A stretch of DNA of 64,000 nucleotides from contig CAOSLI010000001.1 in the NCBI GenBank assembly GCA_948524275.1, positions 329,198-393,197 on the forward strand, given 5' to 3'. Shown here one piece after another: positions 16,282 to 44,999 of this stretch (position 1 is the stretch's first letter; the number at the start of each line of letters is the position of its first letter). Under the pieces are notes generated by a model. The model was given only the letters and a program-made list of their open reading frames with translations, had not been told where the DNA came from and searched no databases. Both the position numbers and the translations under genes were made by a program. This stretch comes from an uncultured Clostridia bacterium. Its GTDB lineage: Bacteria > Bacillota > Clostridia > TANB77 > CAG-508.

Positions 16282-18441
16282 ATGAATATAGTACAAATAA
16301 TAGCAAATGAATTAAGCATAAGGGAAACACAAGTTTCAAAGACAATCGAACTTATTGATAGTGGTAATACAATTCCATTTATAGCAAGATACAGAAAAGA
16401 AGTTACTGGAAACCTAAGTGATGAGGTTTTAAGAAATTTAAATGATAGATTAACTTATCTTAGGAATTTAGAAAATAGAAAGGAAGAAGTTAAGACATCA
16501 ATAGAAAATCAAGGAAAACTTACAGATGAAATAGTAGCAGATTTAGAAAATGCAATGACTCTAGCAGAAGTAGAAGATATTTATAGACCATATAAGCAAA
16601 AGAAAAAGACAAGAGCAATCATAGCTAAACAAAGAGGATTAGAGCCTTTAGCCAACAATATTTTAGAGCAAAAGGATAGTACAGACATTGAGGAAGTAGC
16701 TAAAGAATTTATAAATGAAGAAGTACCAACTGCTGAAGATGCAATTCAAGGCGCAAAAGATATAATAAGCGAAATCATATCTGATGACCCTGATTTCAGA
16801 AAGAAAATTAAGAGTACATATTATAGAGAAGGAATAATTGAGACAACTGCATCTAAGCCTGATGAGAAGTCGGCTTATGAAATGTATTATAAATTTGAAG
16901 AAAGAATATCTTCAATACCAAGCCATAGAATTTTAGCAATAAATAGAGGAGAAAAAGAAGAATTTTTAAAAGTTAAGCTAAGAAAGCCTGATGATAAAAT
17001 TATAGAAATGATATGCAAAAAAATGATAATATCTTCAGGAAAAAGAGCAACACTAATACAAGAGGCAGCAGAAGATAGTTATTCAAGACTAATTGAGCCA
17101 TCAGTAGATAGAGAAATTCGTTCAGATTTAACTGAAAAGGCAGATAAACAAGCAATAATGGTATTTGGAAAAAATGCAAAACAACTTCTATTAGGAGCAC
17201 CACTTAAAGGTTTAACAGTACTAGGATTTGACCCAGCATACAGAACTGGATGTAAATTAGCAGTAATTGATGAAACCGGAAAAGTGCTAGACACTGGTGT
17301 TGTATATCCAACAGAGCCACAAAATGATATAGAGGGTGCAAAAAAAGAGCTAATTAGACTTATAACAAAAGATAAGATAAACATGATTGCAATTGGAAAT
17401 GGAACAGCATCAAGAGAATCTGAGATGTTTGTATCAGATACTATAAAAGAAGTTAAAGAAAAGCTTGGAATTGATGTATATTATGCAATTGTTAGTGAAG
17501 CGGGAGCATCAGTTTATTCTGCATCAAAGCTTGCAACAGAAGAATATCCAGATTTAAATGTATCAATAAGAGGAGCAATTTCAATAGCAAGAAGATTGCA
17601 AGATCCTTTAGCAGAATTCGTTAAAATTGATCCAAAAGCAATAGGAATCGGACAATACCAACATGATGTAGACCAAAAACAATTATCAGAAAGCTTATCA
17701 GGAGTTGTAGAAGACGCAGTAAATGAAGTTGGTGTAGATGTTAACACTGCAACTGCGCCACTACTTTCATATGTATCAGGAATAAACTCAGGAATAGCCA
17801 AAAACATTGTAAAATACAGAGATGAGCAAGGCAAATTTAAAGAAAGGAAAGAGCTTCTTAAAGTCCCTAAGCTAGGAAAAGTTGCATTTGAGCAATGCGC
17901 CGGATTTATTAGAATACCAAATGGTAAAAATCCACTAGAAATAACAGCAGTTCACCCTGAAAGTTATGAAGTCGCTGAAAAGCTTTTAGAAAACATAGGA
18001 AACAAAAAAGAAGATATATTAGACAAAGACAAATTAAAAGATATAAGAACTAAATTATTAGCGATAAATGTTGCTAAAACTGCCACAGAACTTGATATAG
18101 GAGAAATAACATTAAAAGATATAATAGCTGAACTTTGTAAACCAGGTCGTGACCCAAGAGAAGACATGCCAAAGCCAATTCTTCGTAGTGATGTATTAAA
18201 ATTTGAAGATTTAAAAGAAGAAATGGTACTAACAGGGACAGTTAGAAATATTACTGATTTTGGAGCATTTGTTGATGTTGGGGTAAAACATGATGGATTA
18301 GTACACATATCAGAAATGAGCGATAAATTCGTTAAAAAGCCATCTGATATTGTATCTATTGGAGATATTGTAAAGGTAAGAGTAATTGGAATCGATTTTG
18401 AAAAACAAAAAGTTAAGTTGTCAATGAAGGATATAAAATAA
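16282..18441 (+). CDS. tex: Transcription accessory protein Tex (S1 RNA-binding domain)
   Basis: 719 aa; YqgF/RuvC-like and HhH domains, C-terminal S1 domain (GTVRNITDFGAFVDVGVKHDGLVHISEMS). Confidence 0.9.
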   Translation: MNIVQIIANELSIRETQVSKTIELIDSGNTIPFIARYRKEVTGNLSDEVLRNLNDRLTYLRNLENRKEEVKTSIENQGKLTDEIVADLENAMTLAEVEDIYRPYKQKKKTRAIIAKQRGLEPLANNILEQKDSTDIEEVAKEFINEEVPTAEDAIQGAKDIISEIISDDPDFRKKIKSTYYREGIIETTASKPDEKSAYEMYYKFEERISSIPSHRILAINRGEKEEFLKVKLRKPDDKIIEMICKKMIISSGKRATLIQEAAEDSYSRLIEPSVDREIRSDLTEKADKQAIMVFGKNAKQLLLGAPLKGLTVLGFDPAYRTGCKLAVIDETGKVLDTGVVYPTEPQNDIEGAKKELIRLITKDKINMIAIGNGTASRESEMFVSDTIKEVKEKLGIDVYYAIVSEAGASVYSASKLATEEYPDLNVSIRGAISIARRLQDPLAEFVKIDPKAIGIGQYQHDVDQKQLSESLSGVVEDAVNEVGVDVNTATAPLLSYVSGINSGIAKNIVKYRDEQGKFKERKELLKVPKLGKVAFEQCAGFIRIPNGKNPLEITAVHPESYEVAEKLLENIGNKKEDILDKDKLKDIRTKLLAINVAKTATELDIGEITLKDIIAELCKPGRDPREDMPKPILRSDVLKFEDLKEEMVLTGTVRNITDFGAFVDVGVKHDGLVHISEMSDKFVKKPSDIVSIGDIVKVRVIGIDFEKQKVKLSMKDIK

Positions 18442-18532
18442 ATTACTTATTTTTGGAAAAATGCTTGACATATCAATTTTTGGGATATATAATAAATATA
18501 TCAACAGATTATTCATATATATGTAAACACTA

Positions 18533-18566
18533 AAAAAGACTAGGACTGCATTTCCTAGTCTTTTTT
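18533..18566. terminator. Bidirectional intrinsic terminator (tex on + strand; small peptide gene on - strand)
   Basis: A6-GACTAGGA-loop-CCTAGTC-T6. Confidence 0.8.
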
Positions 18567-18574
18567 CCGTATTG

Positions 18575-18643
18575 TTAGTTATCTTTATCATGTATAATTA
18601 CATATACTATGATAAGTGCTAACAACTTCAACAAACTGTTCAT
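18575..18643 (-). CDS. 22-aa hydrophobic peptide MNSLLKLLALIIVYVIIHDKDN (type I toxin-like small ORF)
   Basis: AGGAGG SD 12 nt upstream, ATG start. Single TM-like segment with a charged tail. A paralogous ORF is present at 44853..44927 with the same flanking architecture. Confidence 0.45.
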   Translation of the reverse strand: MNSLLKLLALIIVYVIIHDKDN

Positions 18644-18655
18644 TATATGTAAACG

Positions 18656-18719
18656 CCTCCTTTCTACCTTTTATGAAGAAAGGCTACCATATAATACCAT
18701 GATGTCGAATAAATGTCAA
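18656..18719 (-). promoter_or_regulatory. Sigma-A-like promoter and SD-sequestering 5' UTR stem for the small peptide ORF
   Basis: Minus-strand TTGACA (18714-18719) - 17 nt - TATTAT (18691-18696). The leader forms CCTTTCT/AGAAAGG stem overlapping the AGGAGG SD. Confidence 0.4.
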
Positions 18720-18770
18720 TAATTGACAAAAATAAATAATTTAATTTATAGAAAATAAAATTACGAAAAT

Positions 18771-18799
18771 TTGACAAAATAATAAAAAGATAGTAAAAT
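18771..18799 (+). promoter_or_regulatory. Promoter of rnpB
   Basis: TTGACA - 17 nt - TAAAAT, about 7 nt upstream of predicted P1 start. Confidence 0.5.
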
Positions 18800-18805
18800 A
18801 AAATT

Positions 18806-19168
18806 TAGTAAATCAAATGGTCGCGCTATTTCAATGCCGAAAGGCGAAAAGTGAGGAAAGTCCGGGCCCCATAGAGCAGGATGCTTGATAACGTCAAGTG
18901 AGGGTAACCTTAAGGAAAGTGCAACAGAAAATAACCGCCGTGAATGAAATTAATTTCAGGCACGGTAAGGGTGAAAAGGCGAGGTAAGAGCTCACCGTAG
19001 ATGTAGTGATACATCTAGCCGTGTAAACCCCATCTGGAGCAACACCGAGACTAGGAGAAATAAAGTGGCTGCTCGTCATCTCCTTAAATTGGTGGCAAAG
19101 AGTCATATAGCAATATATGTCCAAGATAAATGACCATTCTTCGACAGAACCCGGCTTACAGATTTACT
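18806..19168 (+). ncRNA. rnpB: RNase P RNA (bacterial type B)
   Basis: P1 pairing AGTAAATC(18806-18813)/GATTTACT(19161-19168); universally conserved GAGGAAAGTCCGGGC (P4 5' strand) at about 18854; 3' P4 strand ACAGAACCCGGCTTA; T-rich tail; about 363 nt. Confidence 0.8.
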
Positions 19169-19348
19169 ATTTTTTATTGATATCAGTATTTTAATATTAT
19201 GTAAAATGAATTATTTGGATAATAATCTATTACAAAAACAGAATAAGCAAGACTGAAAAGTCACATAATAAAATTAGTACAAATTAAAATGTACTAATTT
19301 TTCATGTGTATTTTTAATACAAAGTAAAATTATAAGGAGGGAATTAAA

Positions 19349-19513
19349 ATGGATGGAAATCAAAAAATAGGATGTAAAGTTTGCAGTTGCAAACATAATT
19401 GTGATGGAGAATTTTGTGATTTAGACAAAATATGTGTATGCCCAGTAGAAGGATGTCATTGCGAAGAACCAGAAGAATCAATGTGTTCAAGCTATGAAAA
19501 TGTAAACAAATAA
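19349..19513 (+). CDS. Small cysteine-rich protein (DUF1540-like)
   Basis: 54 aa MDGNQKIGCKVCSCKHNCDGEFCDLDKICVCPVEGCHCEE; 10 Cys; GGAGGG RBS; followed by terminator. Confidence 0.55.
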   Translation: MDGNQKIGCKVCSCKHNCDGEFCDLDKICVCPVEGCHCEEPEESMCSSYENVNK

Positions 19514-42862: not shown

Positions 42863-44689
42863 ATGAACAACCAAAACATAAGAAATATAGCGATAATTGC
42901 GCACGTTGACCATGGAAAGACAACATTAGTTGATGCTCTTTTACATCAAAGTCACGTATTTAGAGAAAATGAACAAGTAGCAGAAAGAGTTATGGACTCT
43001 AATGACCTAGAAAGAGAAAGAGGAATAACAATACTTTCTAAAAATACATCAGTTATGTACAATGATGTAAAAATTAATATAGTAGATACTCCAGGACATG
43101 CTGATTTCGAAGGAGAAGTTGAAAGAGTATTAAAAACTGTTGATGGTGTTTTACTTGTTGTAGATGCGTTTGACGGACCAATGCCACAAACAAGAGAAGT
43201 TTTAAAAAAGGCCTTAGCGCTAGACTTACAACCAATAGTTGTAATAAATAAAATAGATAGACCAGGAGCAGCTCCACTTAAAGCAGTTGATAAGGTATTA
43301 GAATTATTCATAGACTTAGGGGCAAATGATGAACAACTTGATTTTCCAGTTATATATGCATCAGCCAAAAATGGTATTGCCAAAATGACTCTTGAAGAAG
43401 AAAGTGATAACATTACATGTATATTTGATACAATTATAAAGGAAATTGATCCACCAAAATGTGAAATAGATGGTACAATGCAACTTTTAGTATCTAATAT
43501 AAATTATGATGATTATTTAGGAAGAATTGCAGTTGGCAGAGTTGAAAGAGGAACAATAAAAGCTGGACAATCTGTAAGTATTTGTAAAGAAAATGGAAAG
43601 GTTATCCAAGGCAAACTTGCTAAATTATTTACTTATGAAGGTTTAAAAAGAGTTGAAGCAGAAGAAATTAAGGCAGGAGATATAGTTGCTGTATCAGGAA
43701 TACCTGATATCAATATTGGAGAGACAATATGTGATTTTGATCATCCAGAAAAGATAGAATTTGTTAATATTGATGAGCCAACAGTTTCTATGACATTTAG
43801 TGTAAATGATGGACCATTAGCAGGAAAAGAAGGTAAATTTGTTACATCAAGACATATTAGGGATAGACTATTTAAAGAACTTGAAAGAAATGTTTCACTA
43901 AGAGTAAAAGAAACAGACAAGGCTGAAAGTTTTGAAGTATGTGGACGTGGAGAACTTCATATATCTGTACTAATTGAAACAATGAGAAGAGAAGGTTTTG
44001 AACTTTTAGTATCTCGTCCAAAAGTTATATTTAAAGATATTGATGGTGTAAAATGTGAACCTATTGAAACACTTAGTGTTAATGTTCCAGATGATTCAGT
44101 TGGAAATGTTATTGAAAAACTTGGTAGAAGAAAAGCAGAAATGGTTAACATGGAACCAGCAGAACCAGGTCATACAAAAATAGAATTTACAATTCCAGCA
44201 AGAGGTTTAATTGGATATAGAACAGAATTCCTTACAGATACAAAAGGTGAAGGAAGAATGTCAAGCGTATTTAAAGATTATGAGCCATATAAAGGTGAAA
44301 TACAAGCAAGGACAAGGGGAGTATTAACGGCATTTGAACCAGGTACATCAATTACTTATGGATTATATAATGCACAATTAAGAGGAGAACTTTTAATTGG
44401 TGCAGGTGTAGAAGTATATGAGGGAATGATAGTTGGTATAAACTCAAGAAATGAAGATATATCAATAAATGTATGTAAAGAAAAACATTTAACAAATACT
44501 AGAGCCTCTGGTTCAGATGATGCACTTCGTTTAGTTCCACCACTTCAAATGTCATTAGAACAATCAATTGAATTTATAGCTGATGATGAACTTGTTGAAG
44601 TTACACCTACAAATATTAGATTAAGAAAGAAAATATTAGATACAAAAACAAGGGAAAGAGAAGCAAGAAGAGCACAATCTGCAGACTAG
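42863..44689 (+). CDS. typA: Translational GTPase TypA/BipA
   Basis: NIAIIAHVDHGKTTLVDALL, DTPGHADF, NKIDR; 608 aa with EF-G-like domain order. Confidence 0.9.
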   Translation: MNNQNIRNIAIIAHVDHGKTTLVDALLHQSHVFRENEQVAERVMDSNDLERERGITILSKNTSVMYNDVKINIVDTPGHADFEGEVERVLKTVDGVLLVVDAFDGPMPQTREVLKKALALDLQPIVVINKIDRPGAAPLKAVDKVLELFIDLGANDEQLDFPVIYASAKNGIAKMTLEEESDNITCIFDTIIKEIDPPKCEIDGTMQLLVSNINYDDYLGRIAVGRVERGTIKAGQSVSICKENGKVIQGKLAKLFTYEGLKRVEAEEIKAGDIVAVSGIPDINIGETICDFDHPEKIEFVNIDEPTVSMTFSVNDGPLAGKEGKFVTSRHIRDRLFKELERNVSLRVKETDKAESFEVCGRGELHISVLIETMRREGFELLVSRPKVIFKDIDGVKCEPIETLSVNVPDDSVGNVIEKLGRRKAEMVNMEPAEPGHTKIEFTIPARGLIGYRTEFLTDTKGEGRMSSVFKDYEPYKGEIQARTRGVLTAFEPGTSITYGLYNAQLRGELLIGAGVEVYEGMIVGINSRNEDISINVCKEKHLTNTRASGSDDALRLVPPLQMSLEQSIEFIADDELVEVTPTNIRLRKKILDTKTREREARRAQSAD

Positions 44690-44816
44690 TTTTTTATAGT
44701 CTATTATTACATCTGACAATTAGGTTAAAATTAAATGCATTATTTTGGAAAAAACTTGACAGTCAAAAAAAAAAATGTTATTCTATATATAGTTAATAAA
44801 TTTCAATGATGTAAAA

Positions 44817-44850
44817 AGACTAGGAAATGTCACTTCCTAGTCTTTCACCT
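44817..44850. terminator. Hairpin terminator shared by typA (+) and small peptide gene (-)
   Basis: A5-GACTAGGAA-loop-TTCCTAGTC; near-identical stem sequence to the terminator at 18533-18566. Confidence 0.65.
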
Positions 44851-44852
44851 TT

Positions 44853-44927
44853 TTACTCTTTATTTTTATTGTCATCTACAATTATGTATAATATGATAAG
44901 AGCAATCATTTGTATTATAAACTTCAA
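44853..44927 (-). CDS. 24-aa hydrophobic peptide (M)KFIIQMIALIILYIIVDDNKNKE, paralogue of the 18575..18643 ORF
   Basis: TTG start 8 nt after AGGAGG SD. The TM-like core ALII.Y.I is shared with the peptide at 18575..18643, with the same terminator-peptide-SD-stem-promoter layout. Confidence 0.45.
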   Translation of the reverse strand: MKFIIQMIALIILYIIVDDNKNKE

Positions 44928-44934
44928 TGATGTC

Positions 44935-44999
44935 ACCTCCTTTCTACCTTATAAAGTGAAAGGTTTTTATATAATATAACAAAAAATGACATATGTCAA
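44935..44999 (-). promoter_or_regulatory. Sigma-A-like promoter and SD-sequestering leader for second small peptide ORF
   Basis: Minus-strand TTGACA (44994-44999) - 17 nt - TATTAT (44971-44976); leader CCTTTCA...GGTAGAAAGGAGG with conserved GGTAGAAAGGAGG block identical to copy 1. Confidence 0.4.

Follow-up and report, generated by a model that had tools for sequence, protein, structure and literature searches.

In a 64,000-nucleotide stretch from an uncultured Clostridia bacterium with a 29% GC genome (assembly GCA_948524275.1, contig CAOSLI010000001.1, positions 329,198 to 393,197; hereafter the window), a cassette of about 250 bp lies downstream of typA and faces it convergently. We conclude that this cassette is probably a chromosomal type I toxin–antitoxin (TA) locus, built like par of pAD1 and SprA1/SprA1as. 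This reading is based on the anatomy of the cassette, its conservation, the coding signature of its short open reading frame (ORF) and the locus-specific complementarity of its two RNAs. On this reading, both RNAs would be transcribed, their pairing would repress translation and the peptide would be toxic. The original prediction had flagged 190 bases here as the second copy of a small-peptide module. The coding part of that description stood, but as a module it was incomplete. The unit runs 56 nt further, to position 44756, and within these additional bases lie a convergent promoter and the gene of a predicted antisense RNA. Neither this gene, nor a direct repeat, nor the role of the conserved leader core as one half of a hairpin occluding the Shine–Dalgarno sequence (SD) had been seen there, which is why no type I TA name was given.

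A search of the window with a DNA profile of the family recovers exactly two full copies (E = 1.7e-39 and 9.6e-33), the cassette next to typA (copy 2) and one on the tex/rnpB side (copy 1), with the same parts in the same order (Table 1). What the original prediction had listed as common to both was found again in each case: the minus-strand promoter TTGACA-17-TATTAT, the leader core, the terminator stem and a homologous peptide; the TTG start of copy 2 does lie 8 nt past the GGAGG core of the SD. The GTG given for copy 2 in the ORF list was rejected, because it overlaps the SD and is unusable as a start. Just two occurrences of the leader block GGTAGAAAGGAGG were found in the 64 kb, each on the minus strand (18656-18668 and 44936-44948), against 0.09 expected from shuffled sequences. 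In minimum free energy (MFE) folds, the 5' hairpin (CCUUUC...GAAAGG) pairs the AAAGG part of the SD AAAGGAGG; occlusion is partial, as AGG stays free. A second hairpin hiding the AUG was seen on folding copy 1 and is not kept in copy 2. The terminator stem GACTAGGA...TCCTAGTC is the sole terminator-like site in each region (0.1 expected). It is flanked by an A-run and a T-run and can therefore work in both directions, and it is the only region where the peptide mRNA and the antisense RNA overlap.

In both copies, a convergent near-consensus promoter just past the terminator would give rise to an antisense RNA of about 65–75 nt, which runs for about 25–35 nt before reaching the common terminator. 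Between terminator and antisense promoter, the DNA directly repeats the mRNA segment from the SD to the first codons (mRNA ACATCATTGAAGTTTAT versus ACATCATTGAAATTTAT in copy 2; GTTTACATATAATGAACAGTTTGTTGA versus GTTTACATATATATGAATAATCTGTTGA in copy 1). The 5' tail of the small RNA is thus complementary to the start region of its own mRNA. This complementarity covers the SD to codon 8 of the cognate mRNA and not of that of the other copy. RNAduplex predicts 17 contiguous pairs and -20.5 kcal/mol for the copy 2 duplex and -28.2 kcal/mol for that of copy 1, the start codon being covered in both. When partners were swapped, the energies were -15.2 and -9.0 kcal/mol, the latter for copy 1 antisense RNA on copy 2 mRNA.

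To place these copies in a family, one genome per species was scanned for the hairpin-plus-SD pattern, which yielded 97 stretches. Most of them come from metagenome-assembled genomes (MAGs) of uncultured gut Clostridia, and the isolate names, taken as names only, point among others to samples of rabbit, goat and Hadza human origin; about ten of the 97 are chance matches in other phyla and have no ORF. We retained 76 modules in 73 loci, chosen for an ORF of 22–24 amino acids (aa), which begins 5–13 nt past the SD; a few other leader matches in Clostridia have a longer or different ORF. Start codons are ATG in 44 modules, TTG in 26 and GTG in 6. A sense promoter matching the consensus at 10 or more of 12 positions lies upstream of the leader in 67 of the 76 modules, mostly at equal distance, and an antisense promoter of the same quality is present at a fixed distance in 70. 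Of the 58 modules analysed in detail, all but three have TTGACA as their antisense -35 box, and spacer length or sequence is likewise a conserved feature. The terminator lies within 15 nt of the stop codon in 57 of 76 modules. Its stem shows compensatory GC/AU/CG/UA changes, and its positions stay paired in 56–58 of 58 modules (RNAalifold consensus). When the whole mRNA was folded as a consensus, the lower 5' stem and the terminator were the only structures to emerge. The original suggestion of a multi-copy family held in part: besides the two copies in the window, several genomes carry 2–4 diverged copies, but in the genome from which the window derives only the window's two were seen.

Locus-specific pairing extends across these 58 modules. 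Cognate duplexes have a mean energy of -27.5 kcal/mol, compared to -11.5 kcal/mol (standard deviation 4.2) for non-cognate ones, and in the duplex-energy matrix the own partner ranks first for 45 of the 58 toxins and for 50 of the 58 antisense RNAs. The duplex starts at the end of the SD, crosses the start codon and reaches about codon 8, often as two blocks with an internal loop between them. Although 56 of the 58 modules differ in the 12 nt that follow the SD, the mRNAs mostly find their best partner in the cognate RNA, and pairing thus co-evolves locus by locus. Ungapped identity of the direct repeats was discarded as a measure of covariation; it discriminates weakly (9.9 versus 7.6 of 12 positions) because the repeats hold bulges, and the duplex-energy matrix is the better test.

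The original prediction had argued that selection acts on the peptide, and the comparisons agree. The two window peptides align without gaps and share 9 of 22 residues, with a nonsynonymous divergence (dN) of 0.42 and a synonymous divergence (dS) of 0.99. Within the family, pairwise dN/dS is about 0.5, with dS near saturation. Entropies at the three codon positions are 1.28, 0.52 and 1.42, second positions being far more conserved than first or third. The +1 frame is open in none of 74 modules and the +2 frame in 11, while the three reverse frames are open in 1, 12 and 16. We also looked for the pattern that had been named as counter-evidence, broken ORFs between intact flanks, and saw none in the 76 modules, albeit these were picked by ORF length; the ORF is intact and its length kept at about 50% amino-acid divergence. 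Second-position conservation together with closed alternative frames indicates that the predicted ORF is under coding selection.

The family consensus is MKxLLKLLxLxxIYLIxKxxxx, with conserved residues L8, L10, Y14 and I16. Position 2 is K or R in 52 of 74 peptides and position 3 is D or N in 53 of 74; the copy 1 peptide has N2/S3 and its first charge at K6. The general layout is a short polar N-terminal part, then about 14 hydrophobic residues, then a charged tail such as DDNKNKE, HDKDN or KHLSK. Mean hydropathy of the core ranges from 2.2 to 3.5, and the hydrophobic moment of this continuous hydrophobic core is 0.4–0.6. For copy 2, the Kyte–Doolittle mean is 3.0 over residues 4–17 and the moment is low. 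Strong hydrophobicity with a low moment fits a predicted transmembrane helix rather than a surface-active one.

From these features a mechanism can be proposed. A near-consensus sigma-A-type promoter would produce the predicted peptide mRNA of about 155 nt, whose first 25 nt would fold and hide part of the SD, so that the hairpin would damp translation of the nascent mRNA; translation would yield a peptide of 22–24 aa. From the opposing near-consensus promoter, an RNA of about 65–75 nt would end at the same bidirectional terminator. The two RNAs would pair at the terminator hairpin, where they physically overlap, and between the 5' tail and the start region, through the direct repeat. Pairing of the abundant small RNA over the spacer, start codon and first codons would block ribosome access, and cleavage of the duplex may follow. 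The peptide would be made only once the small RNA is depleted, and would then insert into the membrane, damage it and arrest or kill the cell.

Table 1. Positions of the predicted parts of the two cassettes, and of features adjoining copy 1, in the window (position 1 is its first nucleotide).
Feature	Position	Strand	Description
Copy 2, sense (peptide mRNA) promoter	44971..44999	-	TTGACA (44999-44994), 17 nt, TATTAT (44976-44971); 11/12 to consensus
Copy 2, predicted sense transcription start	near 44964	-	from promoter position
Copy 2, 5' hairpin	44939..44963	-	CCUUUC-ACUUUAUAA-GGUAGAAAGG; MFE folds; very 5' end of mRNA
Copy 2, leader block GGTAGAAAGGAGG	44948-44936	-	3' half of 5' hairpin; ends in SD
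Copy 2, SD core GGAGG	44936..44940	-	end of the leader block
Copy 2, ORF	44853..44927	-	TTG start (44927-44925), 24 codons including the start, TAA; (M)KFIIQMIALIILYIIVDDNKNKE; predicted single-helix membrane peptide, putative toxin
Copy 2, mRNA target site (first copy of the direct repeat)	44916..44934	-	GACAUCAUUGAAGUUUAUA; covers SD–start spacer, TTG start and codons 2-4
Copy 2, bidirectional intrinsic terminator	44815..44845	both	A-run, GACTAGGAA stem, loop, TTCCTAGTC, T-run; common to both RNAs
Copy 2, second copy of the direct repeat	44795..44813	+	antisense RNA reads AAUAAAUUUCAAUGAUGUA; complementary to start region of peptide mRNA
Copy 2, predicted antisense small RNA	44791..44855	+	putative antitoxin, ~65 nt; 24-nt single-stranded 5' tail and terminator hairpin; both ends predicted
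Copy 2, antisense promoter	44756..44784	+	TTGACA, 17 nt, TATTCT; 10/12; TG upstream of -10 (extended -10)
Copy 1, whole cassette	18465..18721	-	same parts, same order as copy 2
Copy 1, sense promoter	18719-18691	-	geometry identical to copy 2
Copy 1, 5' hairpin	18683-18659	-	folding
Copy 1, ORF	18643-18575	-	MNSLLKLLALIIVYVIIHDKDN; 22-aa peptide
Copy 1, mRNA target site	18658-18627	-	cognate duplex -28.2 kcal/mol
Copy 1, terminator	18532-18566	both	stem with A-run and T-run
Copy 1, antisense RNA	about 18500-18572	+	predicted
Copy 1, antisense promoter	18465-18493	+	TTGACA-17-TATAAT; 12/12 to consensus
RNase P RNA	18805-19174	+	class A (280 bits)
RNase P RNA promoter-like site	18771-18799	+	11/12
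Cysteine-rich ORF	19349-19513	+	54 aa; MDGNQKIGCKVCSCKHNCDGEFCDLDKICVCPVEGCHCEEPEESMCSSYENVNK

Both copies lie in core-genome spacers, not in prophages or plasmids, with tex, rnpB, typA and a methyltransferase gene as neighbours. Across species we found no conserved neighbourhood or partner gene: only two other loci have tex within about 1–1.6 kb of the module, and none has typA. The TypA of the window is identical to that of GCA_948845805.1, where no gene is called in the spacer. Among 63 metagenome loci with typA–methyltransferase synteny (TypA 66–95% identical), the cassette is present in none; the spacer ranges from 36 to 2227 bp and measures 74 and 125 bp in the closest relatives. Since the site next to typA is empty in these 63 syntenic relatives, copy 2 is, judged by synteny, a lineage-specific insertion into a variable spacer. 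Beyond both -35 boxes only A-rich, UP-like sequence is conserved, and we saw neither terminal inverted repeats nor target duplications; nothing thus points to a transposon-like end. The sequence TTTTGGAAAAA, shared by the two window copies, was considered as a conserved flank and dismissed as not general in the family. A blastn search of phage and plasmid collections with the cassette gave no match.

The same spacer holds other elements in relatives. Loci L124, L132, L156 and partly L115 carry, on the minus strand of the spacer between typA and the methyltransferase gene (OMT), a different cassette of the same design: a 43-aa ORF MSCDEQKRNCTDKIVKLLKNLHKILKQALAVVEVLKSIIDLFQ (MCRDKHKRSCIDAIIKPLKNLHKILKQVLAVAEVLKSIIDLFQ in L156), a bidirectional terminator AACAGGCAT...ATGCCTGTT, a convergent promoter, and a direct repeat, TTATGTCTTGCGA, with one copy at the start codon and another past the terminator. 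This spacer looks like a hotspot for cassettes resembling type I TA loci. In the group L142–L146, L153 and L156, some relatives have a spacer ORF that, judged by eye, resembles a purine phosphoribosyltransferase, and others one of roughly 180–200 aa. Elsewhere in the window, the gene for RNase P RNA directly adjoins copy 1, and its promoter-like site stands back-to-back with the copy 1 toxin promoter; the cysteine-rich ORF follows just downstream of rnpB.

Within the family, tandem cassettes occur 320 bp (L083), 600 bp (L049) and 1.3 kb (L047) apart, and different peptide subtypes can share one genome, such as KNFIQLLKLIVLYLIVKALFEE with KDLLELLKLILIYYIVKHLSK in L049; several MAGs have family matches on two contigs. 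A second, unrelated peptide family, M(S/T)S(F/Y)DLIWRLI..LLLS followed by an acidic tail (28–33 aa), is found behind the same promoter and CCTTTC...GGTAGAAAGGAGG leader in L006, L017 and L028, also with a start-region repeat past the terminator. Three of its copies lie on predicted viral contigs of IMG/VR, in L100 (1433-1731), L103 (1942-2240) and L105 (2386-2697). Still other peptides stand behind the GGTAGAAAGGAGG leader in L016 and L063.

The position of the cassettes raises the matter of their host genes. Neither typA (ending at 44689) nor the tex-like gene (ending at 18441) has a terminator of its own in the intervals 44690-44755 and 18442-18464. The cassette terminator is the only terminator-like site downstream of either gene, the predicted antitoxin gene points in the direction of the host gene, and read-through transcripts would therefore hold the antisense sequence. 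Across the family, 47 of 65 modules (p = 4e-4) have, on their antisense side, a neighbouring gene that converges on the toxin gene, and roughly half of these neighbours reach their stop codon no more than about 25 nt from the antisense -35 box. The excess of convergent neighbours and the lack of terminators after typA and tex suggest that host-gene read-through might contribute antitoxin sequence in a 3' untranslated region and so couple toxin repression to transcription of a housekeeping gene. We regard this as a tentative and rather unlikely idea. If it held, the cassette would be a built-in growth-state sensor acting through the gene of a translation/stress GTPase rather than a free-standing addiction module.

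Several observations weigh against assigning the cassette to type I TA loci. The assignment is a prediction from the sequences of uncultured hosts. At 22–24 aa, the peptide is at the low end of known type I toxins. In copy 2, the antisense promoter (-10 TATTCT) and the interrupted U-tract are weaker than in most family members. The six lower pairs of the 5' hairpin are paired in 58 of 58 modules (RNAalifold), but the search pattern itself fixed this lower stem, so that finding it invariant adds no independent support. Of 58 toxin loops in the family, 19 have a YUNR motif; both window copies lack it. The window peptides have no match in Pfam or NCBIfam, and searches of the peptides against Pfam, NCBIfam, PHROGs and PDB sequences returned nothing meaningful. 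PXXXG is absent from all 71 listed sequences, and in no column of the core do P or G rank with the most frequent residues. Alignment of the family profile with Fst of pAD1 by hhalign gave a probability of 2%, with a manually entered Fst sequence. At gathering threshold, the Rfam scan returned only RNase P RNA and one tRNA, with no antitoxin family, and E-value scans of both modules likewise gave no antitoxin family, only miRNA- or terminator-type noise and ncr1015.

Some of these searches left candidates that we rejected. One family member matched Holin_BhlA at E = 0.062, all PHROG matches had E values of at least 0.049 and PDB matches of at least 3; none of the 71 family members matched Pfam Fst or Ldr at E values up to 10. 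The ncr1015 match, to the copy 1 antisense region (18463-18569, plus strand), reached 31.9 of the 60 bits required (E = 0.003). We did not accept this sub-threshold match as evidence because the alignment consists mainly of AT-rich sequence and the terminator and because ncr1015 has no known function. In B. subtilis, ncr1015 is a small RNA (sRNA) between pps and xynA.

The alternative that deserves most attention is that the cassette encodes a small non-toxic membrane protein under antisense control. Such a protein could, as many membrane peptides of 20–30 aa do, modulate a transporter or a sensor, with a cis-encoded sRNA setting its level. The anatomy of the cassette reveals RNA control and is silent on the role of the peptide, which lacks the signature motifs of Fst; the location of both window copies in core-genome spacers would also suit such a protein. 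However, a modulator of this kind is hard to reconcile with copies scattered over unrelated contexts with no conserved partner gene, with the empty typA site of the syntenic relatives, or with the multiple diverged copies of several genomes, whose antisense pairing is locus-specific. Double occlusion of translation, by hairpin and by antisense RNA, is a hallmark of harmful gene products. We therefore consider a non-toxic membrane protein distinctly unlikely.

A secreted peptide, be it an SHP/Rgg-like pheromone, a cytolysin resembling phenol-soluble modulins (PSMs) or a leaderless bacteriocin, is highly unlikely. Size and hydrophobicity are generally known to be similar in SHP and PSM peptides, and some members, such as MKDLLELLKLILIYYIVKHLSK, have lysines spaced over the N-terminal half. 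Yet no regulator, exporter or immunity gene is adjacent in the varying contexts, the low hydrophobic moment and continuous core are not those of such peptides, the charged C-terminus is unlike that of SHP pheromones, and occlusion of the start codon by antisense RNA is not a known feature of these systems. That the cassette is a non-coding repeat, either a miniature mobile element or a dispersed terminator/promoter cassette with an incidental ORF, is scarcely credible and has been largely refuted. In favour of such a repeat are the shortness of the cassette, its several copies and variable presence, the mirror-image promoters at its ends, and the fact that typA and tex are followed by no terminator but its own. 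Against this stand the ORF kept intact and in length through 76 modules (chosen for such an ORF) despite their divergence, the conserved second codon positions and closed alternative frames, the absence of mobile-element ends beyond the A-rich flanks and the lack of matches in phage or plasmid collections. We conclude that the cassette is real as a conserved, protein-coding and, by prediction, antisense-regulated unit of known design, not a new principle, and that type I TA remains its probable identity.

The family had been missed. It is left uncalled by gene callers in matching public assemblies and is absent from profile libraries, and homology surveys have found almost no type I TA loci in Clostridia outside C. 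difficile (PMC6563280). It occurs in dozens of species-level genomes of gut Clostridia from, going by isolate names, several hosts, and its peptides would be among the shortest Gram-positive type I toxins. It would also extend the design of par and SprA1, in which interaction takes place outside the overlap, beyond the Fst peptide family. The approximately 58 natural pairs of toxin and antitoxin RNAs, with graded cross-complementarity, offer a data set on how specificity evolves among paralogous antisense systems and may be useful for orthogonal RNA devices. The cassettes place terminators and strong promoters between core genes of gut bacteria that cannot be cultured, and they merit annotation.

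Of the known systems, par of pAD1 from E. faecalis (Fst, RNA I/RNA II) is closest in layout. Features conserved among par-like loci are convergent promoters, a bidirectional terminator serving as first contact, DRa/DRb pairing that hides the toxin initiation site and a 5' stem-loop that hides the SD (Weaver review, PMC7472228). The cassette has convergent promoters, a bidirectional intrinsic terminator as the only overlap, direct repeats giving a second complementarity over the toxin translation initiation region, and an analogue of the 5' stem-loop whose occlusion of the SD is partial. Its predicted antisense RNA is likewise small, at about 65–75 nt compared with about 40 nt in par, and its small hydrophobic peptide also begins with polar or charged residues and ends in a charged tail. 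A separate 5' upstream helix, which in par shields the 5' end of the mRNA, was not found; the SD hairpin, 1–2 nt from the predicted 5' end, could serve both roles. The YUNR U-turn loop is not universal among par homologues (PMC7472228). The peptides differ more clearly. Fst has 33 aa, a PXXXG(C) motif and a conserved Trp, whereas the family described here has 22–24 aa and neither feature, with a conserved Tyr14 instead; PXXXG(C) in the hydrophobic domain is essential for the toxicity of Fst and Lpt (PMC7472228). The host clade of uncultured low-GC gut Clostridia is also unlike the hosts of Fst, homologues of which were found by homology searches in only two Clostridia, C. bolteae and C. asparagiforme (PMC6563280).

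According to T1TAdb, only Fst/RNAII and SprA1/SprA1as interact outside the overlap (PMC8594479). In SprA1/SprA1as of S. aureus, as predicted for the cassette, overlap of the cis antisense RNA with the toxin mRNA is confined to the 3' end of the latter, and the non-overlapping 5' domain of the antisense RNA pairs with the ribosome-binding region of the toxin. PepA1, its toxin, is by sequence a member of the Fst family with about 30 aa, and no sequence or Rfam similarity to the cassette was found. The C. difficile modules (CD2517.1-RCd8, CD0956.2-RCd10 and others) share with it the class Clostridia, convergent genes and a small hydrophobic toxin with a charged C-terminus (PMC6563280). Their toxins have 34–59 aa, their antitoxins overlap over a long region, which suggests a degradation mechanism, and they adjoin CRISPR arrays or lie in prophages (PMC6563280). 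In the cassette, unlike these modules, the two RNAs overlap at the terminator alone, and it is a separate direct repeat that would let them pair at the start site.

The Ibs/Sib and ShoB/OhsC toxins of enterobacteria have about 19–26 aa. They resemble the present peptides in length, extreme hydrophobicity and multi-copy chromosomal distribution. Their RNA arrangement is different, Sib being fully antisense to the whole ibs ORF and OhsC divergent and non-overlapping (PMC8594479), and their hosts are Gram-negative. Taken together, the architecture found here is par-like while the peptide is not recognisable as Fst by sequence. As the par-like layout is present and library matches for peptide and RNAs are absent, the cassette is, at the level of sequence comparison, a new peptide and RNA family on a known design.

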